Positions 18,995-34,903 of a stretch of 64,000 nt of DNA are shown here, piece by piece. The stretch is from Escherichia coli (lineage in GTDB: Bacteria; Pseudomonadota; Gammaproteobacteria; Enterobacterales; Enterobacteriaceae): assembly GCF_041248615.1 (NCBI RefSeq), contig NZ_CP158426.1; one strand, 5' to 3'. The translations under genes and the position numbers were made by a program. Positions within the stretch are counted from its first letter, which is position 1. Each line of letters begins with the position of its first letter. Under the pieces are notes generated by a model, which did not search any database, was not told where the DNA came from, and saw nothing but the letters and a program-made list of their open reading frames with translations.

Positions 18995-19212
18995 AAACTC
19001 TCCACTTTGGGGATCTGTAATATCAGTCGCATATCTTTCCTGCCATACAATATAACTGACAAGCGATATTTTGTTAGTGATCCCATGATTTCGTAAAAAG
19101 TGTAAATGAAAGGATGCCCTAAAAGCATCCTTAGCGAGCAGAGAGTCAGCGGAAATAGCTGATTTAAGAATCATCCTGGGCTGAAGATAACATGCAAGCC
19201 TAAAGGATTGAG

Positions 19213-20037
19213 TTATCGCATTATGCCCATGAAGCCATGTACGCCCATATACACACCAACTAAGCCAATCAACAGACTGGAAAAATAGGGGGCGCGTTTA
19301 GCGAGAGTGTTAAATCCGCTCCAGCGTTTTGCGACCTGCTGAACGCTGATTGCTGCGCCAACGCCTACGGTGACCAGCGTTAACGCCAGGCCAATGCTGA
19401 AACTGACGACCAGTGTTGCGCCCAGTGTCAGGGCTTTCAACTGAATGCAAATCAACAGCACGGTAATTGCTGCCGGGCAGGGGATAAGGCCACCGGTTAA
19501 GCCAAATAACAAAATTTGCCAGTTGGTGACCTCTCTACCATCAAAGCGTCGTTTAATGTCATTGGCATGGGCTCGTGCATGGGCATCCTGATACTCGCCA
19601 TGTTCGTGATGGTGATGATGTCCATGGTCGTGGTGATCTTCGTGATCGTGGTGATGATGCTCATGATCATGCTCGTGCATATTCTCCAGCCAGTTTCGTT
19701 CGCCGCGCCAGGTACGCCAGAACATCCAGAACGCGGTGCCAATAATGATCACTGCGGAAATCAACTGGAGCCACGGTTCTGCTGATTGAGCAGTAAAGCG
19801 CTTGCTGATCACCATCCCGCCAAAGGCAATCAACCAGACCACTGCGGTATGCGAAATGGTTGCTGCCAGTCCGAGCATCACCGCCTGTTTAATGGTGCCT
19901 TTGATGGCGATGATAAACGCCGCCATCATCGTTTTTGAGTGCCCTGGTTCCAGGCCATGAAGCGCACCAAGTAAGATGGCGCTGGGGATGAAGAACCAGG
20001 CGTTTCCTTGCTGAAGAAGAGTTGTAAATTCGGTCAT
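19213..20037 (-). CDS. rcnA: Ni/Co efflux membrane protein RcnA
   Basis: Polytopic membrane ORF with the long His/Asp/Glu-rich loop (HEHDHEHHHHDHEDHHDHGHHHHHEHGE). Confidence 0.95.
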   Translation of the reverse strand: MTEFTTLLQQGNAWFFIPSAILLGALHGLEPGHSKTMMAAFIIAIKGTIKQAVMLGLAATISHTAVVWLIAFGGMVISKRFTAQSAEPWLQLISAVIIIGTAFWMFWRTWRGERNWLENMHEHDHEHHHHDHEDHHDHGHHHHHEHGEYQDAHARAHANDIKRRFDGREVTNWQILLFGLTGGLIPCPAAITVLLICIQLKALTLGATLVVSFSIGLALTLVTVGVGAAISVQQVAKRWSGFNTLAKRAPYFSSLLIGLVGVYMGVHGFMGIMR

Positions 20038-20074
20038 GATAATAATTCTTAGTATTAATTCGGCAATCTGATTC

Positions 20075-20109
20075 TACTCCCCCCCAGTACCTGATACTAC
20101 CCCCCAGTA
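20075..20109. promoter_or_regulatory. Two RcnR operator sites (TACT-G/C-run-AGTA) in the rcnA-rcnR divergent region
   Basis: tactcccccccagta (20075-20089) and tactaccccccagta (20095-20109) seen in sequence; match the described RcnR operator architecture. Confidence 0.75.
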
Positions 20110-20157
20110 GATTAATAGTGCTATGATTTTTCATATTCTTATTAACCAGGTGTTGCC

Positions 20158-20430
20158 ATGTCTCATACCATCCGTGATAAACAGAAACTGAAAGCGCGTG
20201 CCAGTAAGATTCAGGGCCAGGTCGTGGCGCTCAAGAAAATGCTCGACGAGCCGCACGAATGCGCTGCAGTTTTACAACAGATTGCTGCTATCCGTGGCGC
20301 GGTAAACGGTCTGATGCGGGAAGTGATTAAAGGTCATCTGACGGAACACATCGTTCACCAGGGGGATGAGCTAAAACGTGAAGAAGATCTGGATGTCGTT
20401 CTGAAGGTGCTGGATTCTTATATCAAATAA
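20158..20430 (+). CDS. rcnR: Ni/Co-responsive repressor RcnR (CsoR/RcnR family)
   Basis: 90-aa [71 protein letters not shown]. Confidence 0.95.
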
Positions 20431-20519
20431 TTTATTAACGCTATTGTAAAACTGCCGTTTTTCCTCGTTTACAACGCGTGCGCTGGACATTACCATCCTC
20501 CTCTGCGATTTATCATCGC

Positions 20520-20599
20520 AACCAAACGACTCGGGGTGCCCTTCTGCGTGAAGGCTGAGAAATACCCGTATCACCTGATCTGGATAATGCCAGCGTAGG
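20520..20599 (+). repeat. Left 80-bp direct repeat (attL-like); copy of the thiM TPP-riboswitch aptamer sequence
   Basis: aaccaaacgactcggggtgcccttctgcgtgaaggctgagaaatacccgtatcacctgatctggataatgccagcgtagg is identical base for base to 33185-33264. Confidence 0.9.
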
Positions 20600-20654
20600 T
20601 TGCCAACATTCTGATTAGTATTCATGTGGTTACATTTCTTTTTGTCCGTGTGTA

Positions 20655-21986
20655 ATGCACCTAATGTACAAAAAGAGCGTAAACATGAGGTACAAAACTC
20701 TTCCATACACGTTTCAAAGAAACGGTAATTACTATCTACAGATTCGGCTTTCGAATGGTCGGATGTATAAAAAATCACTTCTCACTGACAGCTATCGTGA
20801 AGTCTCTGCTTTGATGATTGGTGTTGCTCCGTACATTCCTTTTGTTAAATCATTAGCCATCACAATCCCGATGTTTGATGCCTTTGTTTCAAACCTGATT
20901 ATGTCAAAACTTAGGGCTGTAAAAGTTCCGCTGCTATCACATCAGTCGGTAATTACCCCTGCTACATTCGAGGAACCAGCGACACAAGCCGAACCGCAAA
21001 ACATGCTAACTCTTTCTGATGCGTGGGCTATGTATAAAGCGGAAAAGGGTAAAACATGGACAAAGTCGATCTCAAGGGCGAATGAGCGTTACATGGAAGT
21101 CTTGATGGTTGTCTTGGGAGAGACAACTGACGTAGTTGCGATTTCTAAGCAGGACATCAAGCAGGTGATGGAAGTTGTTGAGAATTTGCCTAAGCGTGTT
21201 GTCCAACCGTATCGCTCAATGAACATCCAGCAACTGATTGAATGTGATGATGTATCACCGAATGAGTTAGTAGGAGTGGAAGCCATTCATAAGCATCTCA
21301 AAATCTACAAATCGCTTTTCAAGACTTTTCTAACAGAAAACAAAGATATTTTGATTAAATCCCCAACTGATGGGGTAGTAGCAGCACCATCTAAAGCAAG
21401 GTTTGGAGCATACAGTTCGGCGGAGATGAAGAAGTTTGTAGAGTGGGCACTTAAGCAGCCAGATGGCTGGCAGAAGTGGATAACATTGTTGTTGGCATAC
21501 ACAGGAGCCAGAAGGGGAGAAATTGCCAAACTGGAAAAATCACAAATAAAATATGATGAGGATAGCCATCGGTATTATTTCCTGATTGCAGAAGGAGGGC
21601 AGGGGAAAACCGAAAATGCTACCCGACAAGTAGTGATACACCCTAAGTTGATCGAATGGGGTTTCATGGAATACGTTGATCGCCAGTGGAAAGAACGGAT
21701 TTTTTCAGAAGTGGCTGGTACAAACATGACGAAGATCGGTAAAGAATTTGCTGATGTGCGTGACCAGCTTGACATTCCGTACTTAGACGATTTTGGACAG
21801 CGGAGGCTTTTGCATAGCATTCGTCATTCTGTTTGCTCTACTGCGATGGCTGGATGGGTAAAGAACATCTTGCATCTGCAACAAACAGTAGGCCATGAGA
21901 AAAGTGGAGGGATCACTAAACGCTACTTACATACGTTCCCACTATCATCAATTTGTTATGTTATTGATGGGATTAGTTGGGTCTGA
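20655..21986 (+). CDS. Tyrosine-type site-specific integrase (island integrase); start may be at MRYKTLPY (20685)
   Basis: C-terminal catalytic signature: AYTGARRGE (box I Arg), HSIRHSV (H-x-x-R), ITKRYLH (Tyr nucleophile). Sits directly next to the left repeat. Confidence 0.85.
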   Translation: MHLMYKKSVNMRYKTLPYTFQRNGNYYLQIRLSNGRMYKKSLLTDSYREVSALMIGVAPYIPFVKSLAITIPMFDAFVSNLIMSKLRAVKVPLLSHQSVITPATFEEPATQAEPQNMLTLSDAWAMYKAEKGKTWTKSISRANERYMEVLMVVLGETTDVVAISKQDIKQVMEVVENLPKRVVQPYRSMNIQQLIECDDVSPNELVGVEAIHKHLKIYKSLFKTFLTENKDILIKSPTDGVVAAPSKARFGAYSSAEMKKFVEWALKQPDGWQKWITLLLAYTGARRGEIAKLEKSQIKYDEDSHRYYFLIAEGGQGKTENATRQVVIHPKLIEWGFMEYVDRQWKERIFSEVAGTNMTKIGKEFADVRDQLDIPYLDDFGQRRLLHSIRHSVCSTAMAGWVKNILHLQQTVGHEKSGGITKRYLHTFPLSSICYVIDGISWV

Positions 21987-22203
21987 AACTGCTAAGAATG
22001 ATAGGAAAAGCTACTTAATGATCCTTAGTTTTGGATGAAATTGAAGATTACAAAGATCTTGAGCGAATAAGAGCGTTTTTTAATCAAAAAAGCCATAAAA
22101 ACTTTTCTTGACTGTATATTAACACAGTGCTTCTACTATGTAGAAGAAATCGACATGAAAAATTTGATATGGTAAATTTTATCCATGATAACAAAAAGGT
22201 ATT

Positions 22204-23106
22204 GTGGATATGTTACTACCAATACGAGTTCATAAACGATTTCTAACTTTATTTAAGACTTTGCAAATTGACGATTGCCCACCGCAATCAACTTTAAATA
22301 TTCATGTACTTAATATCGAAAGCAATGAATTTATATACTGTAAATTAGTTGAAGAATTACGTGACATAATAATTACTTATGTACATTCGAATAGAAGGCT
22401 TGAGGAGTTTAAGGAAAGTTATCCTTCGTATAGCCCTAAACCTTTTTTCGAAGCAATACAAAAATTTCGCAATTATACGTCAAACGAAGGTGAGTTAGGT
22501 GAACTGCTTTTATACGCTTTTCTTGAAACAGGACTAAATGCTCCGAAATTACTTTCCAAAATGCAATTGAAAACAGATTCTAATGATTACATTAAGGGTT
22601 CTGATGGTGTACATCTGTTAGAATTAGATGATGGTTATCAATTAATATTTGGAGAATCAAAGCTCTATGCCGATCTTTTAGAAGGTGCTCGAGAAGCGTT
22701 TGATTCTATTTTAGATTTTAAAAGTAATGGAATGGCATTTGAAAGAGGGCTGATAGATACACACGTTATAAATGAAATGGTTTCAGAAGAAGGTTATGAG
22801 AAAATAAAATCAATTCTTCTTCCTTCTTCTGGCGATGATGGGCCAGATCTTGATTTATCCTTTGGTATATTTCTTGGTTTTGAATTGAAAATAGATAGCT
22901 CACAGTTATCATTGAAAAACAAAGAGTTTAGAGATTGGGTTAATGAGTCCGTGAAACAACATGCTACTCGCGTGGTCAGTACGATACGAAGGAAAATTAT
23001 TAATCATAAATTATATGGTCACGAATTCCACATATATATAGTTCCTTTTACCGATATTGATGTTACACGAAAAAAATTAATTCATGAAATGCTAACAATT
23101 AAGTGA
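22204..23106 (+). CDS. PD-(D/E)xK nuclease-like protein, HamA (DUF1837)-like candidate; start GTG 22204 or ATG 22210
   Basis: Motifs in the order expected for the restriction-endonuclease fold: acidic helix EGELGELLLYAFLE, then SDGVHLLELDDG, then LIFGESKLY (E-x-K). AT-rich; stop overlaps the start of the next gene. Confidence 0.55.
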   Translation: MDMLLPIRVHKRFLTLFKTLQIDDCPPQSTLNIHVLNIESNEFIYCKLVEELRDIIITYVHSNRRLEEFKESYPSYSPKPFFEAIQKFRNYTSNEGELGELLLYAFLETGLNAPKLLSKMQLKTDSNDYIKGSDGVHLLELDDGYQLIFGESKLYADLLEGAREAFDSILDFKSNGMAFERGLIDTHVINEMVSEEGYEKIKSILLPSSGDDGPDLDLSFGIFLGFELKIDSSQLSLKNKEFRDWVNESVKQHATRVVSTIRRKIINHKLYGHEFHIYIVPFTDIDVTRKKLIHEMLTIK

Positions 23107-25691
23107 ACACTATGAATGAATTAAATTCAAGTAAAAACATTCATTTGGCAGCTCGTCTTGCAGATGATGCTTTTGAAAGTGCTTATTTTAAAGAAATCAA
23201 TAAGTTTATAAGTGGTTTATACAATTACAGTTTATTTAACTGCGATTCAGATGTTAGTCTCTCCGAGAGTGATAACAATAAAATAGCACACGCTTTGCGT
23301 TTTGCAGATATATTTTCACATTCTTCAAAAGAAAATCATAGATCATGTGCATTTGAAATTATAAGTAGAATAGCCTTATTAAAAAAACATGATCCTTATT
23401 TTAAATTTATAGGTACTGCTGTTATTAATCGGCTTGGGGTTTATGCAGCAGAAAAACTCATATCAAAAGGGGTAAAATTACCCTTAGATAGAGAAGTTGA
23501 TTCTATTATTAAAAAATCAGTTCAGAAAACAGATGAAGATGGAGTATATTTCACTGATAAACAACATGAGTTATACAAACTTTTAAAAAGTAGCAAAACA
23601 ATTAGTTTTGCTGGTCCCACTTCGATGGGAAAGTCATTTGTTATTAATGCATACATTAAGGAAATAACTCTTAAAAAAGAGCTTAAAAATATAGCTTTAA
23701 TTGTTCCTACACGGGCTTTAATAAGCCAAAATGCACTTAAGTTAAAAATTGATATTGCATTGTATAAGAATGAAAGCCCTTATAAAGTTGTTACGACATC
23801 CTACATTATTAATGGTGATGAAAGTAAAAATAAAGGCTATATTTTTATTCTCACCCCAGAAAGGCTGGTTAGTCTCATAAGCACTATTCCTGGACTAATG
23901 ATTGATTATGTTTTTGTAGATGAAGCTCAAAAGTTAACAACAAAAAATGATTCGAGGAGTCTTGTTACTTATTCAGCTATAGAGCAAACAATTAGTAAAA
24001 ATCCTGAGGCAAGATTATTCTTCTCTTCACCTAATTTATCTAATCCTGAAATATTTAATATTTTGTTTGATAGAAAAGACGCTTCGGTATATAGAAATAC
24101 AGAAGGTGCAACTACTCAGAATATGTATTTTATTGATCTTTTAAATAGCAGCTTTAGCTATGTTAATACCGAGAAAAGGACGCTTGAAAAAATAGATGAG
24201 ATCTCTAATACTTACACGAATACAAATGATGTTATCTATAAATTAAATAATGGTAAAAGTAAAATAATTTATTGTGGGGGGATAGAAAGCACGCTTGAGA
24301 GAACACGTAGCTTTATCAATTATCTCAAAATTAATAAGAAAAAAAGAAAGCATTTAAATTTAGAAATATCTTCTGAGATAAGAAACTTTGTTCATGATAA
24401 CTATGAACTTGCAGAAGCCATCAACTATGGTGTTGCTTTCCACTTTGGAAACTTGCCTCAATCGATTCGAGATTTAATTGAGCATCATTTCAAAATAGGA
24501 AATATTGACTATCTATTCTGTACATCAACCCTACTTGAGGGAGTCAATTTACCTGCAAGATCCGTATTTATTCTTACGCATAAAAAAGGCCCCAGTCCAT
24601 TAGAGTCGGTTGATTTTTGGAATCTGGCTGGGAGAGCTGGGCGATTATCTATGGAATTGTCAGGGGATATTTTTTGTATTAGGGATGATAATAAGCTTTG
24701 GAATAAAAAAGCTGTTGATAATATCCTTCTGTCTGACAAAAATAACATTTCATTAAAGCCAAGCTTCTATATTGAAGACGAAAAAAGATTGAACGATTTA
24801 CACCATATAATTACGACTGGTAAAACAGGGAATATTAAAAATGCTGAGTTCCTTAGAACTTTAGGAGATATGATAAGAATAGACACTCTGAGGGATTCTA
24901 AAGAACTTCCTCTTATTAGTTATTTCCAAAGCAGTGGAAAATCAGAAATTTTGTTAAGTGCAGAAAAAAGCACTGAAAATATTACCATGCCAATGAATAT
25001 CCTTTTGGCAAATAGTCATATTGCGATTGATTCGCAGTATCATGCTTTTAAAAAAATAAAAAGCCTTACAGTTAAGGAACTGAAATTATCATGGCAGCCT
25101 ACATACGAAGAAATTAAAGAAAAATTGAATTTGATATTCGATATTTACCAAGTTGAAAAGTTTGCAACAGGTAGAGAACGTCTTTATTTAAATTCAATTC
25201 CATATTATGCAGTATTACTGTTTCAATGGATTCGTGGAAATAGTCTACAGGAAATTATCTCGGGGGCAATTGCTTATAGAAAGAACAAAAGTATATATAT
25301 TAAAAATACACCTGTTCTTTTTGACAGCGAAAACCCAGCTCATTTAACTGCATTAGTTAATGAAACTATAAAAGACATTGAGTTGCGTGTAGGTTACCAG
25401 TTACAAAATTATTTTTCACATTACTGTCAGCTTCTGAATTATGTGTTACAAGGAAATCCAGGGGCAAACTGGTCTCAGTTCATTGAGTTTGGCTCTAATG
25501 AGCCAATAGTATGGCACCTACAAATGATGGGCTTTTCAAGGGATAGTGCAGTTTTTCTCAAGAAGAATTTTTCAAAACATCTTAAACTTGATAATGAAAT
25601 GAATAAACTCATCATAATGGATAAGGAACTGATCAAGCGTTCTTTCAAAAAAGATGGACTACATTACTTAGAAATCCAATCGTTATTATAA
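23103..25691 (+). CDS. Superfamily-2 helicase (DEAQ box), HamB-like candidate
   Basis: Walker A/motif I FAGPTSMGKSFV, motif II VFVDEAQKL, motif VI-like NLAGRAGRL; about 170-aa N-terminal extension before the helicase core; GTGA start/stop overlap with the upstream gene. Confidence 0.6.
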   Translation: MNTMNELNSSKNIHLAARLADDAFESAYFKEINKFISGLYNYSLFNCDSDVSLSESDNNKIAHALRFADIFSHSSKENHRSCAFEIISRIALLKKHDPYFKFIGTAVINRLGVYAAEKLISKGVKLPLDREVDSIIKKSVQKTDEDGVYFTDKQHELYKLLKSSKTISFAGPTSMGKSFVINAYIKEITLKKELKNIALIVPTRALISQNALKLKIDIALYKNESPYKVVTTSYIINGDESKNKGYIFILTPERLVSLISTIPGLMIDYVFVDEAQKLTTKNDSRSLVTYSAIEQTISKNPEARLFFSSPNLSNPEIFNILFDRKDASVYRNTEGATTQNMYFIDLLNSSFSYVNTEKRTLEKIDEISNTYTNTNDVIYKLNNGKSKIIYCGGIESTLERTRSFINYLKINKKKRKHLNLEISSEIRNFVHDNYELAEAINYGVAFHFGNLPQSIRDLIEHHFKIGNIDYLFCTSTLLEGVNLPARSVFILTHKKGPSPLESVDFWNLAGRAGRLSMELSGDIFCIRDDNKLWNKKAVDNILLSDKNNISLKPSFYIEDEKRLNDLHHIITTGKTGNIKNAEFLRTLGDMIRIDTLRDSKELPLISYFQSSGKSEILLSAEKSTENITMPMNILLANSHIAIDSQYHAFKKIKSLTVKELKLSWQPTYEEIKEKLNLIFDIYQVEKFATGRERLYLNSIPYYAVLLFQWIRGNSLQEIISGAIAYRKNKSIYIKNTPVLFDSENPAHLTALVNETIKDIELRVGYQLQNYFSHYCQLLNYVLQGNPGANWSQFIEFGSNEPIVWHLQMMGFSRDSAVFLKKNFSKHLKLDNEMNKLIIMDKELIKRSFKKDGLHYLEIQSLL

Positions 25692-25697
25692 AACTGC

Positions 25698-25728
25698 CGA
25701 ATCAGAGTCTTTTATTGATTCTGATTCG
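25698..25728 (+). terminator. Hairpin immediately after the helicase gene (weak terminator candidate)
   Basis: CGAATCAGA-(13 nt)-TCTGATTCG; no strong T-tract, so confidence is low. Confidence 0.3.
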
Positions 25729-25999
25729 CACTTATATAGTTAAATCAAAAGGAGCATTAAAATTTTTCAGTAGCGATTTAGTATGCTAAATCGCTGCATA
25801 ACGAATCTGCTTCTAAATCTTGATTAAGTGTTTCGAACTGCCTTGATTGTTTATTGCTACACTTTATAATTAATCGCAACACACAAAACAATACAATGTA
25901 GGCAGTTGCACAGAATTAATTACAGGCACATTATGGATATCGAGAGGATTCGAACAGTTTTAAACTGCAAGCCCTTTGACTTTATCCCCTCCTACTATA

Positions 26000-26575
26000 T
26001 CAGCGTTTGATGCCGCTAATACTGGCAAGCATTTCTTTCTTCACACGAAAAACTGTAGCCCTGCCGCAATCACATAACTTTGCTATCTCGTCTGGTGTAT
26101 TCTTCCCGGCCTGTAACATATCGATAATCTTGTTATGTAGCTCTTTGTTCTTTTGCTTGCCCTTGTACTTCTTAGCCTCTTTAGCAAGAGCAATCCCCTC
26201 ATTGCGACGAGATGCGATCATACCCCGCTCAAATTCTGCAGCGGCTCCCATCATGGTTAGGATAAGGCGTGATTGTGGGGAATTATCAAAACTCATAGAG
26301 TTTGCAAGGAATTGAACAGTGATTCCACGAGCCACGAGGTTATCAATCATTTCCAGCAAATCGCGGGTATTACGTGCAAGGCGATCAATCGAGTGAGTAA
26401 CGAGCGTGTCACCTTCGCGGAGGTGTGAAAGCAGGTTCAACAATTCAGGTCTTTCGCTGGTGGACTTACCTGATTCTTTCTCTGCCACAATTTTGTCACA
26501 AACAGGTTCCAGCACTGCCAACTGACGCTCAAGATTTTGATCCTTTGTTGAGACTCTCGCGTAACCAAAAATCAT
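26000..26575 (-). CDS. Serine recombinase (resolvase/invertase family)
   Basis: N-terminus MIFGYARVSTKDQNLERQ (catalytic Ser in YARVST context), C-terminal HTH-like tail; 191 aa. Confidence 0.85.
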   Translation of the reverse strand: MIFGYARVSTKDQNLERQLAVLEPVCDKIVAEKESGKSTSERPELLNLLSHLREGDTLVTHSIDRLARNTRDLLEMIDNLVARGITVQFLANSMSFDNSPQSRLILTMMGAAAEFERGMIASRRNEGIALAKEAKKYKGKQKNKELHNKIIDMLQAGKNTPDEIAKLCDCGRATVFRVKKEMLASISGIKR

Positions 26576-26600
26576 TTTCCTGCCCTCACTTACGTGAAAA

Positions 26601-26662
26601 GTATCATTTGAATTTACTTAATGATACAGTATCATTTAAATGCATTCAACATCTAAATGATA
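26601..26662. promoter_or_regulatory. Cluster of three dyad-symmetric elements upstream of the serine recombinase gene (res-like site)
   Basis: GTATCATT-11 nt-AATGATAC; TGATAC-A-GTATCA; ATCATTTAAATG...CATCTAAATGAT. Position immediately 5' of the resolvase start is typical of res sites. Confidence 0.45.
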
Positions 26663-27081
26663 CTAAACGAGACGAGAAAAGCGAGTATCGTTAGGGAGTA
26701 CCCAAAAGAGATTTTTGATCGTGCGTTTTTTAGTCAATGTAGGGTTAGTGAAAAGTTCAGTACCGAGATCTGAGTTCACGGCATTTTGTCGACGGGGTTG
26801 AACCTGATTAGGCGAACGAGATTTTAAATCAGGCGGAATAAAACAAGTTGTACTTTTATCTGAGTAAAAGATCCCTTTAACTTTTTAGTCAGAAATCGTG
26901 ATACTAGGGGTTTGGTTATTTTGTGTCCTTAAGGCCAGTACTTTTAGCGAGGACGAAAAAACGGCCTACATGAGAACGCTTACAGTAACTTAAGTATATT
27001 ATCCAAAAAGTCACTTAACTTAAATCAATTTGGATGCAAAATCGCCACACTTTGCAAGTGAACACATACCGGGCAACAAGC

Positions 27082-27109
27082 AAATAAAAAAGGCCACTTT
27101 CGCGACCTT
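27082..27109 (-). terminator. Rho-independent terminator after the 119-aa gene
   Basis: Minus-strand RNA: AAGGUCGC-GAAA-GUGGCCUU (GNRA tetraloop) followed by UUUUUAUUUG. Confidence 0.65.
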
Positions 27110-27125
27110 GTACCAGTACAAACAC

Positions 27126-27485
27126 TCATTCAGAACGATCAAGTACCATATATGCTGGCTGACACATGCTGCCCCGCTCCTGTAGCCAGTAGTAATCAAG
27201 ATCGGCAACACGCACGTCCAATCCAGAATCTACACGGTTGATCTGTAACCGTAGCCCTACAGTATCCTTGTACGATAAACCAGATTTAACATTGTATTTG
27301 TACTTAACACCGTTTTCCTGTTCAAACTGTTTAAGGAAAGGCGTCATTTGTTTCTGAATTTCTTTCAAACAAATAACCTCATTATCAATAGCAAAGGGGG
27401 GTTCTGTTTTTCCATCAGGTACAGCAGCCTGTAAATGAAAGGAAGTACTCAACAATAACAGCATTGCAACAGAAGTCTTTTTCAT
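27126..27485 (-). CDS. Small secreted/periplasmic protein of unknown function
   Basis: Sec-type signal peptide MKKTSVAMLLLLSTSFHLQA; 43 bp downstream of the membrane-protein gene, same strand. Confidence 0.6.
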   Translation of the reverse strand: MKKTSVAMLLLLSTSFHLQAAVPDGKTEPPFAIDNEVICLKEIQKQMTPFLKQFEQENGVKYKYNVKSGLSYKDTVGLRLQINRVDSGLDVRVADLDYYWLQERGSMCQPAYMVLDRSE

Positions 27486-27528
27486 TTTAATTCCTTATTA
27501 AAGAACAGTACATTATATTTCAATGGAC

Positions 27529-28569
27529 TTAATAACAATATTTTATATTTCCTTCGGGTTTTCTCATGCATTTAATTCCTTCAGGAATATAATCAGTTAC
27601 GGGAGCAGGTCTGGCATCAGGTCTTGAAAGACGATTGGATATAGAAGACAACAGACTGAAAACACACTCATTAAATGATTTTTGATATTTATTTTTTTCA
27701 TAAAAGTACTGCATGGTGATTTTATCTCTTTCGTATTGCAATTCTTTGCCAAGCTGAATCCTATCCATATCAATTCCATTTCTCATAGCATTAAATCTTT
27801 CGTTCAATAAATTAAATTGAGATTTATTCCATTCATTTAAAGGAAATAAAGAATTGTTAAGCCTTTGCCTACAATTAGATTGCTCGATAGCTGACATGTA
27901 TTCTTTCATACTAACGCCAATATCTAAGTATGTGAGTTGTCCAGCAGTTCTATCAACTGAGTTATTAGGGTAAGATTTAATTTCAGTAAGTATTGACTCT
28001 GTTAATACTGCATTTTCTTCTAAATCTTTGCTAATAGTTATTTGAGCTTGTTCTCTTTTATCCTTATCAAATATTGAAATGTATTTCTTTACTATATCCT
28101 GATTAGCTTTCTCGGCTGCTACTAACGCATCTTGAACCTTCTTTTCCGCCGCTTTAACTCGTTGTTCTTCTACAAATTTCGCGTAGTCATCAGTATTTGT
28201 AATGTGATTTTCACGAGCGATAGAAAACTCTTTACTATCTTTAAAACCAAGTTTTTGTGCTCTGGCTCCATCGCTTGAAGATCGGGCAGAACTTGCCACG
28301 AAAGCGAGCACAATGATCAGTACAGGAACCGTATAATTATTAACGAGTTTATAGGGTAAGAACTTCGCTTTAAGCGTACCATAACCCAAAACAGCCCAGC
28401 CTATCGCGGCAGTACTTGCCAGTAGCTGGCACAATCCAGCGACGGAAAGCATGATTACCGACCAGAAGCCTGTACCGACTGCGAAAAGATCACCAAATTT
28501 CTCCATTGACGCAAGGAATAAAAACACTCCCCAAATGCCATAAAATCCTATTTTCAAATATTTACTCAC
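27529..28569 (-). CDS. Inner-membrane protein (3-4 N-terminal TM helices) with coiled-coil-rich soluble C-terminal domain; function unknown
   Basis: Hydrophobic segments in the first ~100 aa; charged helical region (EEQRVKAAEKKVQDALVAAEKANQDIVKK); AT-rich codon usage. Confidence 0.6.
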   Translation of the reverse strand: MSKYLKIGFYGIWGVFLFLASMEKFGDLFAVGTGFWSVIMLSVAGLCQLLASTAAIGWAVLGYGTLKAKFLPYKLVNNYTVPVLIIVLAFVASSARSSSDGARAQKLGFKDSKEFSIARENHITNTDDYAKFVEEQRVKAAEKKVQDALVAAEKANQDIVKKYISIFDKDKREQAQITISKDLEENAVLTESILTEIKSYPNNSVDRTAGQLTYLDIGVSMKEYMSAIEQSNCRQRLNNSLFPLNEWNKSQFNLLNERFNAMRNGIDMDRIQLGKELQYERDKITMQYFYEKNKYQKSFNECVFSLLSSISNRLSRPDARPAPVTDYIPEGIKCMRKPEGNIKYCY

Positions 28570-28779
28570 CGCAATTATCCTTTAATAATTTTCCAAATCG
28601 ATGGTTCGTTCTATTTGTATTATCGACAATAATTCGTTTGCCTTTAGGTAGATCCCTTAAAAAGGAATCCCCCCAAAATTTATAGATTAGCAGTTGTACC
28701 ACTCTCACTGTTTTGTCACTCCCATTATCTTCTCTCAGGTCAAAAGTACGGACTTAAAGCCGTCCGTGTTCAGGTGCTC

Positions 28780-28900
28780 AAGAGTAGCACGCATATCAAT
28801 AAATGATCGATAAAAACGATCAATTAATGGCTTATTGATCGCTATAACCTATCAATGACTATTAATTCAATACAAATCAATAGGTAAAATCGATCAAGAG
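28780..28900. repeat. ATCAAT/GATC-rich iteron-like cluster in an ORF-poor region
   Basis: About six ATCAAT (or complement) motifs in both orientations and several GATC sites within ~120 bp; further GATC pair at 29096-29103. Confidence 0.4.
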
Positions 28901-29552
28901 GATTCGTCATCCATGAAAGGGGTTATGTATCTGATTTCAATACAGGGAGTATTAGCGATACCATCACGCAAACGCTCTTAAAGCGTAGCTACGGCGTTTT
29001 GTAGGGTTTTTGGTCATTCATGTGTGTCAGTAATGAACATCGCATTCAGGGGCTTCCTGTGCGTTTTGTCCGAAACACCATCATGAAGGGGGACAGATCG
29101 GATCGGGGTCGCTTCGCTCTGGTCAGTACTGGATAGTTCTTTTCCAGTAACTGAAACCGCAGATACCCCACTAAGTACACAAAGGAATTATTTGTAGAAT
29201 AAGTAATGAAATAACAGTCAGTTATGTACTTACTGACAGAACTAAAAACGCGATTAGGTTCGCTCTGTCAGTGACCGAAGGGAACGCAACAGTAGAATCT
29301 AATCCAGCGAACAGTACACGCAAGCGGGTGCTGTTTAATTGTTTTATCTATGTAAACAATGGGATAGCTATCAAGTACTCACTGCGTGAGCACTCTCACT
29401 AACTACCCGAAACAGTTCGCTTGCTTCGCCGCTCCTACTTTCAGGTAGTTAATTCGCTTTCGCTCGTTGTGATGTCCGAAATTTATTACCTATAGTATTA
29501 TAAGGTATTATTTTCCGGACATTTATGTATTTTTATGATGGTGTTCTGGACA

Positions 29553-31028
29553 TCATTTTTTGCTTTTTTGTACTTCCTTTTCGTATTTGTTCCACATAGC
29601 CTTTTGCTCTTCGGGACTGAGTGCTGTATTACCACTGGCAAGAAACACCTTGAACGCTTCTAACTCAAGCCCTGGGTTGCGGCTTTTCCAGCGGCGAAAA
29701 CGCTTAGCGTGATTATCATCAAGAGTGAAACGCTTTTGCTTATTCTTTGAACCTTGCGGCCTGCCTCTCGACCTCTGCTCATCATCAATACCGATATCTA
29801 TATACTCAATATTATCTGTAAGAGATCTGGCTTGCCATTCATCAAAAACATAAACAGTCTGTGTTTCAGTACTGTCAAAATCCCTTGAAATTCCTCGTAG
29901 TACGAACTGGTGTAAACTTTCGTACTCCCTCGCAACATGTATCGCCTCGCCGTCAATCTCAAAGAACAATTCGCACTGTTTAGCCTCTGTTTCAGAGGGA
30001 CGCATACAAGCGAGCCAGACGCACGTGAGCAAGTGTTGGTACTGGTTAAACCCTCTGGCATCCGGGCTTATCTCTGTGCCGTTTTTGAGGCTCTGAGAAT
30101 CGCTTTTGTTCTTCGTCCAGTAGAAATCCTGTCCCTCAAGTTTTTTATCAATAAATGAGTATATTTTTTGTACTTTATCAGGGTTATTAGTCTTCCATGT
30201 CTTCGATAGTTTTTGATTTTTTGAGAAGTAATAAACCTTTAATCTGTCTTTGAGAGCTGTTTTTCGTGTCAGTAATCCTCCAAGTTCAGTACTTTCAAAG
30301 AGTTCTTTATTGCCTTTATAGATCAATGAATTTTCGAAATTAGCTCCGAGAAAGGTGATTGATACGTCTTTGTACTTACTGAGATCTTTCCATGCGGTAA
30401 TATTAAGCTGTTCCTTTTTCGCATCGGTAAAGTACTCATTATTCATGATGAACATATCATTTTCGTTAATTGCTGGTAGCTGGTTCAAAATATTCTTCAG
30501 TACTTCCCCTTGTATTTCTGGTTTTCTTTCTGCCGCAATATACATATTTTTATCATCTAATGTCAGTACATTGTGTATTAATGAATTAAGAATTGTATTT
30601 TTTATATTAGTATCACCCTCATTAATATTCTGAAAAGAGTGAAAATTAGTAACGTCGTCAATATAAATATTACAGTCAGATAACAATTCAGGAGGAATTT
30701 TGAAAAACGTTTTATCTGTTATGAGTAATGTTTTATTACTTCCAGATGAAAGAAAGTTAATAACTGAATTAATAACACTTTCATCTTTTGGTACTGTATC
30801 TGTAATTATATACTCGCAATTATTGATTTGCTTTGCTGTCTGCTTAATAAGTTCTTGAGTGTTCTGTACTAAAATATATTTTTCAGTACTGTTATTGATT
30901 ATATTGCATATAGCAGTAGTTTTACCTGAACCACAAGGGGCGGAGACATACTTAAATTTATTATAAATAGGTGTGGGATTAATCATTTGTACACGCTCCA
31001 TATTGATTAATGTAGAAAGGTCAGCCAT
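29553..31028 (-). CDS. P-loop NTPase with basic C-terminal tail containing an AT-hook-like RGRP motif; function unknown
   Basis: N-terminal Walker A SAPCGSGKTT, Walker B-like NIYIDDV; C-terminus RSRGRPQGSKNKQKRF. Confidence 0.6.
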   Translation of the reverse strand: MADLSTLINMERVQMINPTPIYNKFKYVSAPCGSGKTTAICNIINNSTEKYILVQNTQELIKQTAKQINNCEYIITDTVPKDESVINSVINFLSSGSNKTLLITDKTFFKIPPELLSDCNIYIDDVTNFHSFQNINEGDTNIKNTILNSLIHNVLTLDDKNMYIAAERKPEIQGEVLKNILNQLPAINENDMFIMNNEYFTDAKKEQLNITAWKDLSKYKDVSITFLGANFENSLIYKGNKELFESTELGGLLTRKTALKDRLKVYYFSKNQKLSKTWKTNNPDKVQKIYSFIDKKLEGQDFYWTKNKSDSQSLKNGTEISPDARGFNQYQHLLTCVWLACMRPSETEAKQCELFFEIDGEAIHVAREYESLHQFVLRGISRDFDSTETQTVYVFDEWQARSLTDNIEYIDIGIDDEQRSRGRPQGSKNKQKRFTLDDNHAKRFRRWKSRNPGLELEAFKVFLASGNTALSPEEQKAMWNKYEKEVQKSKK

Positions 31029-31370
31029 TCCAGTGTCTGGCCTTTCGTTGTTTTAGTTATTAGTCTTTTTGAGTTGCGACAACTGCAAGAGAATGTTTAT
31101 AAACAAGTGAAATAAGCAGTTTTACCGCCTCAAAAGCTACAGTCAGTTTCGTAATTATTTTCGAAAGCATCGTAAATTTCACTTCGCTATCTTCTATGCA
31201 AAAATTAGCAGCCTGAGGTATTTAATGATTGAGATGTGGCCTGTTGATAAGAGGGTTTGTATTGCTTGTTCTGCTCTTTGTTAATTTGTGACTTATTCCT
31301 TTCACAATGATCGGCTATGTTTGATAACTCTGTTAGGAAATCACCTATGGCTACCATATTGGATTTGCCC

Positions 31371-32276
31371 CTATATTTCCAGACACCTGTTATCACTTAA
31401 CCCATTACTGGCCTGCTGCCGCAGATATTCCCGTGGCGAGCGATAACCCAGTGCACTATGCGGATGCCATTCGTTATAATGCTCGAACGCCTCTGCAAGG
31501 TTCTTTGCTGCCGTTAACCCGTCTGGTTTAGGCATGATACTGATGTAGTCACGCTTTATCGTTTTCACGAAGCTCTCTGCTATGCCGTTACTCTCCGGAC
31601 TCCGCACCGCCGTGTTCTTCGGTTCAAGCCCCAATATCCGGGCAAACTGCCGTGTTTCATTAGCCCGGTAGCATGAACCATTATCCGTCAGCCACTCTAC
31701 TGGAGACGCCGGAAGCTCGTTGCCGAAGCGGCGTTCCACCGCTCCCAGCATGACGTCCTGTACTGTTTCACTGTCGAAGCCGCCCGTAGTGACTGCCCAG
31801 TGCAGTGCCTCACGGTCACAGCAGTCCAGCGCGAACGTGACTCGCAGTTTTTCTCCGTTATCACAGCGGAACTCGAACCCGTCAGAGCACCATCGTTGAT
31901 TGCTTTCTTTCACGGCCACTTTGCCAGTATGTGCCCGTTTCGATGGCGGTACAGCGGTTTTTCGCTCAAGCAACAGCGCATTCTGGCGCATGATCCGGTA
32001 AACACGTTTGGCATTGATCGCAGGCGTACCATCAAGTTCGGCCTGTCTGCGAAGCAGCGCCCATACCCGACGATAACCATACGTGGGCAGCTCTCCGATA
32101 ACATGGTGTATACGGAGAAGCACATCCGTATCATCTGAGTGACGGCTGCGGCGACCATCTTTCCAGTCATCGGTTCGTCTGAGAATTACGTGCAACTGCG
32201 CACGCGACACCCGGAGACAACGGCTGACTAAGCTTACTCCCCATCCCCGGGCAATAAGGGCGCGTGCGCTATCCAC
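31371..32276 (-). CDS. insD: IS2 transposase OrfB (InsD), DDE domain
   Basis: 301-aa ORF recognised as IS2 InsD; overlaps insC in the -1 frame as expected for an orfAB frameshift fusion. Confidence 0.9.
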
Positions 32277-32599
32277 TTTTTTGCACGCCCGTATTCAACG
32301 GCTTCTTTAAGGAGTTCATTTTCCATCGTTTTTTTGCCGAGCAGGCGCTGGAGTTCTTTAATCTGCTTCATGGCAGCAGCAAGTTCAGAGGCAGGAACGA
32401 CCTGCTCTCCTGCGGCCACAGCAGTAAGACTTCCCTCCTGGTATTGCTTGCGCCAGAGAAATAACTGGCTGGCTGCCACACCGTGTTGCCGGGCAACAAG
32501 GGAGACCTTCATTCCCGGTTCAAAACTCTGCTGAACAATAGCGATCTTTTCCTGTGTAGTACGCCGTCTGCGTTTCTCCGGTCCTAAGACATCAATCAT
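32234..32599 (-). CDS. insC: IS2 OrfA (InsC), HTH protein
   Basis: [56 protein letters not shown]...; start taken at MIDVL (ORF track begins 45 nt upstream). Confidence 0.9.
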
Positions 32600-33184
32600 C
32601 TGCTCTCCAATGACTAGTCTAAAAACTAGTATTAAGACTATCACTTATTTAAGTGATATTGGTTGTCTGGAGATTCATGGGGCCAGTCTACATATAATCA
32701 TGTTCATCTTCTAATTCTTTAAATTTTAATAGAGAAATCTCTTCATAATATTCTTTCATTTTCATATAAATCACCTTTTATTTTTTTGTTGTTAACACAG
32801 GTTTTTTTCTGCACTACACATTATAGCACATAGAATTAATTCGTTTCATTTTCTGTCAATGAAATAGAGTAAAGATAAATGCTTTTATAAAGCACTTATC
32901 ACATCCGTTGCCTTGCTATATATAAAAAGTTCTCCAAACTATACTGGTGTATATTTTCCCCATCAGATACAGTTGTTTTTAAACATTACAATGTTGGATT
33001 CTTGGTTCCAAATAAATCGAGCAACTATTAGTGTTTCAAAATGAAGTTGGGAGCTATTCCTTAATTCGTATGAGGTACAAAATGGGGTACTCGGTGGGGT
33101 ACAGCGTGTATAAGTGACGTCACCACGGGTAAACTTGCATCGGCGAGCAACTTAACCTAAGCTGACAAAAATTAAGAGAAATGT

Positions 33185-33317
33185 AACCAAACGACTCGGG
33201 GTGCCCTTCTGCGTGAAGGCTGAGAAATACCCGTATCACCTGATCTGGATAATGCCAGCGTAGGGAAGTCACGGACCACCAGGTCATTGCTTCTTCACGT
33301 TATGGCAGGAGCAAACT
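33185..33317 (+). promoter_or_regulatory. thiM TPP riboswitch (thi-box aptamer plus expression platform); its first 80 bp are also the right direct repeat (attR-like) of the island
   Basis: Sequence ...cgactcggggtgcccttctgcgtgaaggctgagaaatacccgtatcacctgatctggataatgccagcgtagggaagtcacggaccaccaggtcattgcttcttcacgttatggcaggagcaaactATG matches the recalled E. coli thiM riboswitch. Confidence 0.9.
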
Positions 33318-34106
33318 ATGCAAGTCGACCTGCTGAGTTCCGCGCAATCTGCGCACGCGTTACACCTTTTTCACCAACATTCCCCTCTTGTGCACTGCAT
33401 GACCAACGATGTGGTGCAAACCTTTACTGCCAATACCTTGCTGGCGCTCGGTGCATCGCCAGCGATGGTTATCGAAACCGAAGAGGCCAGTCAGTTTGCG
33501 GCTATCGCCAGTGCGTTGCTGATTAACGTTGGCACGCTGACGCAGCCACGCGCACAGGCGATGCGTGCCGCCGTTGAACAGGCAAAACGCTCTCAAACAC
33601 CCTGGATGCTTGATCCAGTAGCGGTGGGTGCACTCGATTATCGCCGCCGTTTTTGTCTGGAACTTCTGTCTCATAAGCCAACCGCCATACGTGGTAATGC
33701 TTCGGAAATCATGGCATTAGCTGGCGTTGCTAATGGTGGACGGGGAGTGGATACCACTGACGCCGCAGCTAACGCGATACCCGCTGCACAAACACTGGCA
33801 CGGGAAACTGGCGCAATCGTCGTGGTCACTGGCGAGATGGATTATGTTACCGATGGACATCGTATCATTGGTATTCACGGTGGCGATCCGTTAATGACCA
33901 AAGTGGTAGGAACTGGCTGTGCATTATCGGCGGTTGTCGCTGCCTGTTGTGCGTTACCAGGCGATACGCTGGAAAATGTCGCATCTGCCTGTCACTGGAT
34001 GAAACAAGCCGGAGAACGCGCAGTCGCCAGTAGCGAGGGGCCAGGCAGTTTTGTTCCACATTTCCTTGATGCGCTCTGGCAATTGACGCCGGAGGTGCAG
34101 GCATGA
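33318..34106 (+). CDS. thiM: Hydroxyethylthiazole kinase
   Basis: 262-aa [36 protein letters not shown]...; 4-bp overlap with thiD. Confidence 0.95.
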
Positions 34107-34903
34107 AACGAATTAACGCTCTGACGATTGCCGGTACTGATCCGAGTGGTGGTGCGGGGATTCAGGCCGATCTTAAAACCTTCTCGGCACTTGGCGCTTA
34201 TGGTTGCTCAGTGATTACTGCACTGGTGGCGCAAAATACCCGTGGCGTACAGTCGGTGTATCGCATTGAGCCTGATTTTGTCGCCGCCCAGCTCGATTCG
34301 GTGTTCAGCGATGTGCGAATCGATACCACTAAAATCGGTATGTTGGCGGAAACCGATATTGTTGAAGCGGTGGCAGAACGGTTGCAACGTTATCAGATCC
34401 AAAACGTGGTACTCGACACCGTTATGCTGGCAAAAAGCGGCGACCCGCTGCTTTCACCTTCGGCGGTTGCTACGCTGCGCAGTCGATTATTGCCACAGGT
34501 TTCATTAATAACGCCAAACTTGCCCGAAGCTGCTGCCTTGCTCGACGCGCCACACGCGCGCACCGAACAGGAAATGCTGGAACAAGGGCGATCGCTGTTG
34601 GCGATGGGCTGTGGCGCAGTGCTAATGAAAGGTGGTCATCTGGATGATGAGCAAAGCCCGGACTGGCTGTTTACTCGCGAGGGAGAACAACGGTTTACCG
34701 CACCGCGCATTATGACCAAAAACACCCACGGCACTGGTTGTACGCTCTCTGCGGCGTTGGCTGCACTACGCCCGCGCCATACAAACTGGGCTGACACCGT
34801 ACAGGAGGCAAAAAGCTGGCTTTCATCGGCGTTAGCCCAGGCCGACACGCTGGAAGTTGGTCACGGTATTGGTCCGGTTCACCACTTCCACGCCTGGTGG
34901 TGA
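34103..34903 (+). CDS. thiD: Hydroxymethylpyrimidine/phosphomethylpyrimidine kinase
   Basis: 266-aa [37 protein letters not shown]... Confidence 0.95.

Follow-up and report, generated by a model that had tools for sequence, protein, structure and literature searches.

What is the function of a gap of about 1 kb, free of any sizeable gene, inside a mobile genetic island? The question is raised by a stretch of 64,000 nucleotides of the Escherichia coli contig NZ_CP158426.1 (assembly GCF_041248615.1), referred to here as the window. In it, positions 28570-29552 (the gap) separate the gene for a 346-aa membrane protein (27529-28569) from that for a 491-aa NTPase, an SF2 helicase (29553-31028, minus strand, stop codon 29553-29555). 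An earlier note, made from the sequence letters alone, had drawn attention to the lack of long open reading frames (ORFs) and to clustered short motifs, and had suggested an origin or partition site, an operator array, a structured non-coding RNA (ncRNA), or a gene for a small membrane peptide. Here we describe the gap as selected non-coding DNA composed of two modules. We tentatively read the right-hand ~490 bp (module 1, 29066-29552) as the replication origin of the island, with a build like that of the origins of staphylococcal pathogenicity islands (SaPIs), and would put this at a little under an even chance; the left-hand part (module 2, 28680-29066) is probably the regulatory switch region of the island.

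The gap is about as conserved as the first and second codon positions of the helicase gene next to it. Over 28680-29470, pairs drawn from 16 distinct sequences share a mean identity of 0.82-0.94, and the values for codon positions 1, 2 and 3 of the NTPase gene are 0.85, 0.88 and 0.70; the AT-rich spacers of module 1 share in this conservation (0.86-0.90). Substitutions in the gap lack a 3-nt periodicity, and insertions or deletions of 1-2 nt are frequent. Strong conservation, the absence of codon periodicity, and the tolerance of small indels together show that the gap is non-coding DNA under selection rather than the remains of a gene; it is thus neither the unconserved spacer nor the decayed protein-coding gene that the earlier note had held out as ways in which its view might fail.

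Coding potential in the gap is correspondingly slight. No ORF of 60 aa or more is present, as had been claimed—those that come closest measure 43-59 aa, the longest ones overlapping the ends of the gap—and the 22-codon ORF that had been pointed out does exist (28913-28981, plus strand; ATG at 28913, MKGVMYLISIQGVLAIPSRKRS, with AAGAGGA upstream). That this ORF encodes a 22-aa membrane toxin or leader peptide, or that the gap is what is left of a gene, is hardly credible to us. A good Shine-Dalgarno sequence precedes the ORF, several E. coli lineages keep its frame intact, and sister islands carry genes (cI and cro) in the left half of the gap; however, there is no nucleotide similarity between the gap and the cI/cro module, and the start, frame, or stop of the ORF has gone in at least six lineages while the nucleotides around it are conserved. 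The ATG is missing at the related loci L010/L041, an early stop is found in L042, the frame is shifted in L017 and in L009/L031 (1-nt deletion), the stop is lost in L003 and L006, and the whole ORF is absent from L007 and L016. As a coding sequence it is unconserved, and the idea of a small membrane peptide gene has to be given up.

The division of the gap into two modules is seen when relatives with a different left side are aligned; their similarity to the window ends sharply at ~29040-29067. Module 1, to the right of this border, is kept at 75-92% nucleotide identity in the relatives fetched, including those in which a cI/cro pair makes up the left half (79-92% in L023, L024, and L025, where module 1 still touches the NTPase stop codon), and its conservation of 0.82-0.94 compares with 0.70 at third codon positions. 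Module 1 is non-coding, abuts the helicase stop codon, and begins at that codon in all fetched relatives that have an intact helicase gene and downstream sequence. This linkage is seen in E. coli, Enterobacter, Raoultella, Phytobacter, Yersinia, Rouxiella, Morganella, Pectobacterium, Hafnia, Providencia, and metagenomes, and it holds even where everything to the left of module 1 differs.

Module 1 is bounded by an inverted repeat of 18-21 nt. The left arm, TGTCCGAAACACCATCATGAA (29067-29087, plus strand), is present in all relatives and is 86% complementary to the right arm (29532-29552, minus strand), which touches the helicase stop codon; where relatives have a longer helicase (518 aa), the right arm falls within the final codons of the ORF. 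Between the arms, G+C-richer repeat clusters (TCGCTTCGCTCTGGTCAGTACTG, TTCGCTCTGTCAGTGAC, CAGCGAACAGTAC, AAGTACTCAC, TTCGCTTGCTTCGCC, and TTCGCTTTCGCTC) alternate with AT-rich stretches (27-37% G+C). Block B (29088-29135) comes first and consists of GATCGGATCGG (29096-29106), the pair that the earlier note had placed near 29096, followed by TCGCTTCGCTCTGGTCAGTACTG, within which the first TTCGCT and AGTACT repeats lie; it is near-invariant and survives in L007, where the helicase gene has been lost. The first AT-rich stretch (29170-29250, 27-37% G+C) carries AAGTAC, AAGTAA, and GTACTT repeats and the hairpin GTCAGT-N9-ACTGAC, and is partly deleted in L020, L022, and L023. It is followed by the hairpins SL-A (29252-29304) and SL-B (29312-29336), with TTCGCTCTGTCAGTGAC and CAGCGAACAGTAC; the first of these sequences (29259-29275) and TTCGCTCTGGTCAGTAC (29112-29128) are the TTCGCTCTG(G)TCAGT-like repeats that had been reported, and both were recovered. 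A second AT-rich stretch (29337-29372, ~33% G+C) leads to the most conserved part of the module (0.93), a unit of AAGTACT, SL-C, and SL-D at 29373-29467. Here SL-C is formed by CTCAC-TGCG-TGAG (29380-29394), the loop of SL-D (29397-29451) carries TTCGCTTGCTTCGCC, and the unit is closed by the pair TTCGCTTTCGCTC (29455-29467). The last element is the palindrome SL-E (29472-29522), with its two TGTCCG(A/G)AA arms ATGTCCGAAATTTATTACCT / AGGTATTATTTTCCGGACAT.

All five hairpins (SL-A to SL-E) are conserved with compensatory changes and without strand bias; examples are changes from GC to UA at several pairs of SL-A/SL-B and from AU to GC at 29405/29446 in SL-D. Single-sequence folding of module 1 beats that of shuffled sequences on both strands, with z values of -5.3 (plus) and -8.0 (minus). 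The SL-E hairpin has a second sequence type in the L011 group, and parts of the module have been duplicated—L010/L041 have an additional SL-C/SL-D copy upstream of the helicase gene, in L030 the right arm of SL-E is repeated in tandem (32 bp), and in Providencia the SL-A/SL-B unit is tandemly duplicated at ~210 bp per copy. SL-B of Providencia keeps the geometry of its stem with an entirely different sequence. The Providencia versions of module 1 as a whole (L013:8471-9031 and L021:6415-6975) are only ~51% identical to that of the window, with hairpin geometry and AGTAC enrichment kept. Degenerate islands without the NTPase gene (L006, L007) retain only pieces of the gap, namely block B and block A (an array in module 2 that is described below), with or without the SL-C/SL-D unit.

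The short motifs of module 1 are more frequent than chance predicts. Chance was assessed with 2000 dinucleotide shuffles of the gap. AGTAC/GTACT is found 8 times where 1.9 are expected (3 of 2000 shuffles reach 8), and TTCGCT/AGCGAA 6 times where 0.5 are expected, a count that none of the 2000 shuffles reaches; TGTCC occurs 5 times against an expectation of 1.4. In the divergent gap of Providencia there are 15 copies of AGTAC, with 1.4 expected.

The constant neighbor of module 1 is a helicase of SF2 fold, XPD/DinG-like. Its sequence gives only weak ResIII/DEAD P-loop matches in Pfam, nothing in a PDB sequence search, and, among phage proteins, only hypothetical proteins of jumbo phages at 23% identity; assignment as a plasmid Rep was rejected, as the match to CyRepA1 is at P-loop level only (20 bits, where the cut-off is 200). 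When 1.84 billion representative proteins were searched with a profile, 875 relatives were returned. In seven of seven tested relatives that have an N-terminal extension, the extension matches PHROGs of phage DNA primases, helicase-primases, or origin-binding proteins, which places the helicase module in a family that primase-helicase replication proteins make use of; in the window it stands alone. Since Pfam gave nothing for these primase-helicase relatives, the primase assignment is that of PHROG. Foldseek adds one listed relative that contains a VirE_N domain. The C-terminal end of the window helicase (residues 415-491, ~29553-29786) has an invariant, AT-hook-like RGRPxG motif followed by three predicted helices with invariant F/R/W, and this tail is a candidate DNA-binding module.

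AGTAC and TGTCC motifs appear to accompany the helicase family over large evolutionary distances, as would be expected of sites bound by the helicase or by a fixed partner. The distant helicase relative P0135 (metagenome contigs L050 and L051) scores ~290 bits against the profile. Its gene in L050 is adjoined by a 930-bp gene-free stretch, here upstream rather than downstream, in which AGTAC is found 8 times (1.4 expected; 0 of 1000 shuffles). The same stretch has two direct 45-bp repeats starting TGTC(C/T)..TTTAGTAC, two inverted copies of them ~400 bp off, the palindrome GAGCGAAGCGAAC / TTCGCTTTGCTC between the repeat pairs, and GATC palindromes. A primase-helicase relative (L048) is followed by an AT-rich gap of 710 bp with TGTCC-containing palindromes (5 against 0.9 expected).

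Which known element does this arrangement resemble? SaPI origins contain six to twelve iterons of 5-6 nt, located directly downstream of rep and around an AT-rich center, and the iterons face opposite ways on the two sides of that center (PMC9371898). Module 1 matches this description in the number and place of its short repeats—AGTAC eight times and TTCGCT six times in an element that starts at the helicase stop codon—and it is this match that leads us to regard module 1 as a putative origin and the SF2 helicase as its likely cognate opener or unwinder. The AT-rich center with opposed iterons is a less clear parallel: module 1 has two AT-rich stretches (29170-29250 and 29337-29372) between its repeat clusters and TGTCCG inverted at its two ends, but TTCGCT keeps largely to a single orientation, and AGTACT reads the same on both strands. 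The likeness to SaPIs and related phage-inducible chromosomal islands (PICIs) extends to the element as a whole, which is a small integrative island with an integrase and, in some relatives, a repressor switch; the combination of integrase, switch, helicase, adjacent origin, and cargo would follow the logic of phage-inducible islands. The origin that the earlier note had suggested would therefore lie in the right-hand ~490 bp of the gap, as far as can be inferred. In the mechanism that we propose, the island would excise and the helicase would then recognize the repeats of module 1, possibly by means of its conserved basic C-terminal tail (RGRP motif and three helices), and would open the AT-rich DNA; priming and synthesis of the island circle would be left to host or helper enzymes.

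Several observations weigh against an origin. No terminal overlap, as a circular form would leave, was seen in the island-length contig L047 or in the metagenome contigs checked. Known self-loading initiators are hexameric SF3/AAA+ proteins, whereas the helicase here is XPD/DinG-like SF2, and we know of no precedent for an SF2 origin-binding initiator; in a tblastn search of PLSDB plasmids it had no homologue. Only two DnaA boxes, each with one mismatch, were found (28589-28628), and these are outside module 1; the gap has no IHF consensus and the island no RepA-type gene, so that the picture is not that of a DnaA-dependent iteron origin, in which DnaA boxes and an IHF site accompany 17-22 bp iterons bound by a RepA-type initiator. 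The strand that folds best is the minus strand, which is the side of the 3' untranslated region (UTR) of the helicase mRNA, and the uniformly high conservation exceeds the need of protein-binding repeats alone and would also fit an RNA. Block A, for its part, cannot be essential to the function of module 1, as it is absent from cI/cro-type islands. The SaPI comparison has its own limits. The helicase is unlike SaPI Rep in that it is not a hexameric self-loading enzyme with a C-terminal winged helix; unlike SaPIs, the island does not encode a primase, and its module 1 is conserved throughout and has several covarying hairpins. SaPI origins are also much shorter than the ~490 bp of module 1.

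The satellite phage P4, with its alpha primase-helicase, its ori/crr, and an immunity region based on RNA, provides a second point of comparison. Like P4, the island is an enterobacterial integrative element with defence cargo and an immunity region without a protein repressor, and it would resemble P4 in having a replication helicase with cognate short repeats. In contrast to these likenesses of layout, there is no DNA or protein similarity to P4, and the island has no capsid-size or transactivation genes.

Module 2 is best described as a GATC/ATCAAT operator-promoter block, from which we infer its role as the switch region. On its left is the probable 5' leader of the membrane-protein operon (28570-28796, presumably read on the minus strand), which is conserved from ~28680 onward (0.84-0.88) and includes the hairpin ACGGAC-N8-GTCCGT (28748-28767); this hairpin is kept in L004, L005, and L006 with altered loop and stem bases. 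Block A (28795-28897) follows, an operator-like array of five ATCAAT motifs, two near-copies, and four conserved GATC sites. The earlier note had counted at least six ATCAAT motifs in both orientations; the dense cluster on both strands stands, but the exact copies number five (28795, 28819, 28834 on the minus strand, 28851, and 28876), the near-copies being ATCGAT at 28806 and ATCAAG at 28892. Five ATCAAT within 90 bp are reached in none of the 2000 shuffles. The GATC clustering was described correctly, with four sites at 28805-28895; four GATC within 95 bp are reached by 24 of 2000 shuffles. The ATCAAT, GATC, and TTCGCTCTG(G)TCAGT repeats all exceed chance, and the conservation of every noted feature in homologous islands speaks for the same. 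Within block A lies the palindrome CGATCAAT-N9-ATTGATCG (28816-28842), and TTGATCG...CGATCAA (28835-28897) forms an outer one. Block A is near-invariant in 21 distinct sequences and is retained in the degenerate island L007 and in Providencia.

Some transcription signals can be proposed in module 2. A candidate rightward promoter (TTAATT, 17 nt, TAAAAT; 28863-28890, plus strand) was read by eye within the invariant stretch CTATTAATTCAATACAAATCAATAGGTAAAA, and is to be taken as putative because the consensus scan missed it; that scan found promoter-like sites in the gap to be no commoner than in shuffles. The left transcription unit would end just before module 1 at a terminator-like hairpin, CAGG-GGCTT-CCTG followed by TGCGTTTTGT (29047-29066, plus strand). 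The position of this hairpin is kept with another sequence in L023 (CCAATA..TATTGG) and L020 (GCTT..AAGC). Conserved structure in module 2 is otherwise nearly absent (-8 kcal/mol), being limited to two small hairpins, of which the terminator-like one is the first example. In our proposal, block A would carry divergent promoters—one leftward into the operon of the membrane and secreted proteins, and the other reading rightward for ~170 nt to the terminator. Candidates for binding to block A are the small serine recombinase, whose gene has upstream palindromes that resemble the ATCAAT core of the block, or Dam/SeqA on the four conserved GATC sites. A kissing-loop interaction, in which the loop of the leader hairpin (28748-60) would pair with the rightward RNA (28972-84), was considered and rejected, the complementarity being lost in L004, L005, and L006.

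The comparison with sister islands gives module 2 its place in a known type of layout. In Pectobacterium (L023, L024) and Hafnia (L025), block A and the small ORF are replaced by a divergent pair of genes, one cI-like (HTH_3 and Peptidase_S24; PHROG 4, transcriptional repressor) and the other cro-like (HTH_35; PHROG 769); the cro-like gene is at the position of the 28570-28796 leader. The E. coli-type block A stands in the position that the cI/cro pair holds in these islands, and divergent repressor genes of the cI/cro type are not found in the window. Block A has position and divergent layout in common with the lambdoid cI/cro immunity region, and the Pectobacterium and Hafnia islands have a true cI-like/cro-like pair as that region does. 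The window version, in contrast, has no repressor genes, and the repeats of block A (ATCAAT/CGATCRAT) are unrelated to the intergenic DNA of the cI/cro islands. The suggestion of an operator array is therefore supported by the position of the ATCAAT/GATC block, in a divergent-promoter spot where relatives have cI/cro.

Because the origin reading has the weak points given above, explanations by RNA and by transfer or packaging keep real weight. Module 1 could be an RNA, either a long structured 3' UTR belonging to the helicase mRNA (minus strand) or an ncRNA in its own right, with the rightward 170-nt transcript of module 2 as an RNA regulator that replaces cI, by analogy with the CI RNA of phage P4, which acts as an RNA regulator. 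We consider this unlikely, but the most serious of the competing explanations. Conservation is uniformly high across ~800 bp, AT-rich parts included; single-sequence folding is far better than that of shuffles, and best on the minus strand; several hairpins of module 1 show compensatory changes; no intrinsic terminator separates the helicase stop codon from module 1 on the minus strand; and module 2, at the cI position, lacks a conserved ORF and has a terminator-like hairpin at its end. However, the Rfam 15 covariance models gave no match at E <=1 over 26000-32000, and the consensus fold of module 1 is weak and similar on the two strands (-39 and -51 kcal/mol over 540 nt; RNAalifold, 32 distinct sequences), with no consensus structure spanning the whole element. 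The counts of G:U and A:C, taken over the union of predicted pairs, are symmetric at 209 and 245, the left half of the gap is nearly without conserved structure, and promoter-like sites are no commoner than in shuffles. A weak consensus fold that is alike on both strands, with equal wobbles, points to palindromic DNA or to single-stranded DNA of either strand rather than to one transcript; likewise, short repeats that occur in both orientations, and that recur in a distant relative with its gap upstream of the gene, fit DNA sites better than one folded RNA. A structured RNA confined to one strand was rejected on the RNAalifold energies and the wobble symmetry, and the ncRNA suggested earlier finds little here to sustain it, though a transcript or a structured UTR from module 1, above all a 3' UTR on the minus strand, keeps some probability. 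A mixed scheme, in which a protein-free, non-coding switch (block A and the 170-nt transcript, by way of RNA or Dam methylation) has replaced cI/cro and module 1 is a large structured RNA or RNA-DNA element that acts with the SF2 helicase and is not a plain origin, seems to us distinctly improbable.

Two further explanations treat the repeats as sites for other enzymes. Module 1 or block A may be a cis site for transfer, either a pac/cos packaging site for a helper terminase or an origin of transfer (oriT) used in trans; we regard this as improbable, though deserving of weight. The GATC hexamer clusters recall the pac site of phage P1, which is Dam-dependent and whose conserved TGATCA/G hexamers form two groups about the point of cutting, and AATCCAGCG resembles the RP4 nick core, ATCCTG/C (L008 and L022 read ATCCTGC). 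Hairpins are abundant on both strands. Genes for capsid, terminase, relaxase, or mating pore are all missing from the island, so that a helper and a cis site would be needed for its movement; islands carrying only an oriT are common (bioRxiv 10.64898/2026.01.13.699239). Nevertheless, blastn against 50,697 phage records and 72,556 plasmids (PLSDB) returned no hit, the gap sequence is confined to these islands in 5,426 E. coli genomes, and hexamers of the type TGATCR are unconserved (GATC is kept, but L002, L005, and L006 read CGATCG). The constant pairing with one helicase family, regardless of integrase type and host genus, points instead to a partner encoded by the island. A known oriT was rejected for want of PLSDB matches and of E. 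coli copies outside the islands, as was a P1-type pac or a known phage cos/pac, given the variable hexamer flanks and the lack of a match among phage records.

It is very unlikely that the inverted TGTCCGAAA-type repeats are sites for the small serine recombinase, whether in a 490-bp switch that can invert or at a res-type site for the resolution of multimers. There is some likeness to Tn3/gamma-delta res and to Hin, as inverted half-site-like repeats (TGTCCGAAA; ATCAAT) and a serine recombinase of the Hin/resolvase family (26000-26575) share one element; four TGTCCGAAA-type sites cluster in module 1, TGTCCGAAA is similar to the gamma-delta/Tn3 resolvase half-site, and the ATCAAT core of block A is similar to the outer half-site of Hin hix. 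Unlike in the Tn3 and Hin systems, the repeats are 2.5-3 kb distant from the recombinase gene, and the recombinase has its own palindrome pair of a different motif, GTATCATT..AATGATAC, directly upstream. A fixed orientation in all genomes makes a recombination site unlikely: a query with 29067-29552 flipped matched 0 of 54 E. coli genomes, the orientation is identical in all ~45 loci, and the membrane-gene block between recombinase and module 1 is never inverted.

The island that contains these modules is a 12.7-kb mobile, defence-type element that sits in the thiM thiamine pyrophosphate (TPP) riboswitch. TPP aptamers bound it at 20522-20617 and 33187-33283 (58 and 71 bits), and an Rfam scan of 19000-34500 gave these two flanking riboswitches only; no tRNA or tmRNA was found. 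The thiM leader is the integration target and the riboswitch is duplicated as the attachment repeat, the left copy now being 5' of the integrase gene. E. coli strain KE55 is 100% identical to the window over 28400-29700, and its island of ~11 kb is flanked by two copies of the thiM TPP riboswitch. Relative to KE55, the window has an extra IS3-family element of ~1.34 kb (inserted between ~31397 and 32733; its ORFs at 31371-32644), which truncates a 74-aa ORF upstream of the helicase gene and leaves 63 aa of it (31205-31396).

The gene order is tyrosine integrase, HamA/HamB, small serine recombinase, a 119-aa secreted protein, the 346-aa membrane protein, the gap, the 491-aa NTPase, and a small ORF; HamA/HamB constitute Hachiman (HamB match, E 8e-296). 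The same backbone is found at the E. coli sites ffs/ybaA, yggS, and ybhA and throughout Enterobacterales, and generally comprises an integrase (tyrosine or large-serine), the NTPase, a gap of 0.7-1 kb, the membrane protein, a ~118-aa protein, variable defence cargo, and the small serine recombinase. A limited literature search found no published description of this backbone or of a helicase-linked non-coding element. The membrane protein (186-346 aa) and the secreted ~118-aa protein are core genes of every island (27126-28569 and homologues) and have no PHROG, PADLOC, or NCBIfam match. The membrane protein is conserved in its N-terminal transmembrane part only, and the secreted protein is swapped for an LprI-family protein in L002; in cI/cro-type islands both genes are immediately 3' of the cro-like gene.

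The cargo slot (22200-25691; loci L002-L047) holds different defence systems in different hosts. Hachiman occupies it in the window, a STAND ATPase in L004, SMODS and SLATT in L005 and L017, a Cap4-nuclease/AAA_23 cluster in L016 and L047, an NB-ARC/TPR protein in L025, an N6_N4 methyltransferase in L023, and dual-OB/DUF488/DUF4326 genes in L003 and L006. The recombinase gene beside the cargo matches PHROG 125 (DNA invertase, E 5e-58). The palindromes upstream of it (26601-26664; half-site AGTATCATTT; GTATCATT-N11-AATGATAC and AGTATCATTTA-N15-TAAATGATACT) look like its own res/operator sites and are conserved with the gene in L004, L005, L013, L021, and L022. Further upstream is a second conserved non-coding element of ~250 bp (26693-26966), 78-82% identical in L002, L003, L005, L006, L008, and L010. 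Its position relative to the recombinase varies, but it is always at the border of the variable cargo; it has a hairpin, CCTGATT..AATCAGG, and its CAGTAC and GATTAGG..CGAAC motifs recall module 1.

Islands of ~10-13 kb with exchangeable anti-phage cargo are thus present at several integration sites across Enterobacterales. The presence of either cI/cro or a gene-free operator block at one and the same position makes them a natural experiment on the silencing and induction of islands. Should module 1 indeed serve as origin to an SF2 helicase from a primase-linked family, it would represent a new replication module for satellite-like islands, and the helicase together with the AGTAC/TTCGCT/TGTCCG element would provide a simple sequence marker by which such islands can be found.

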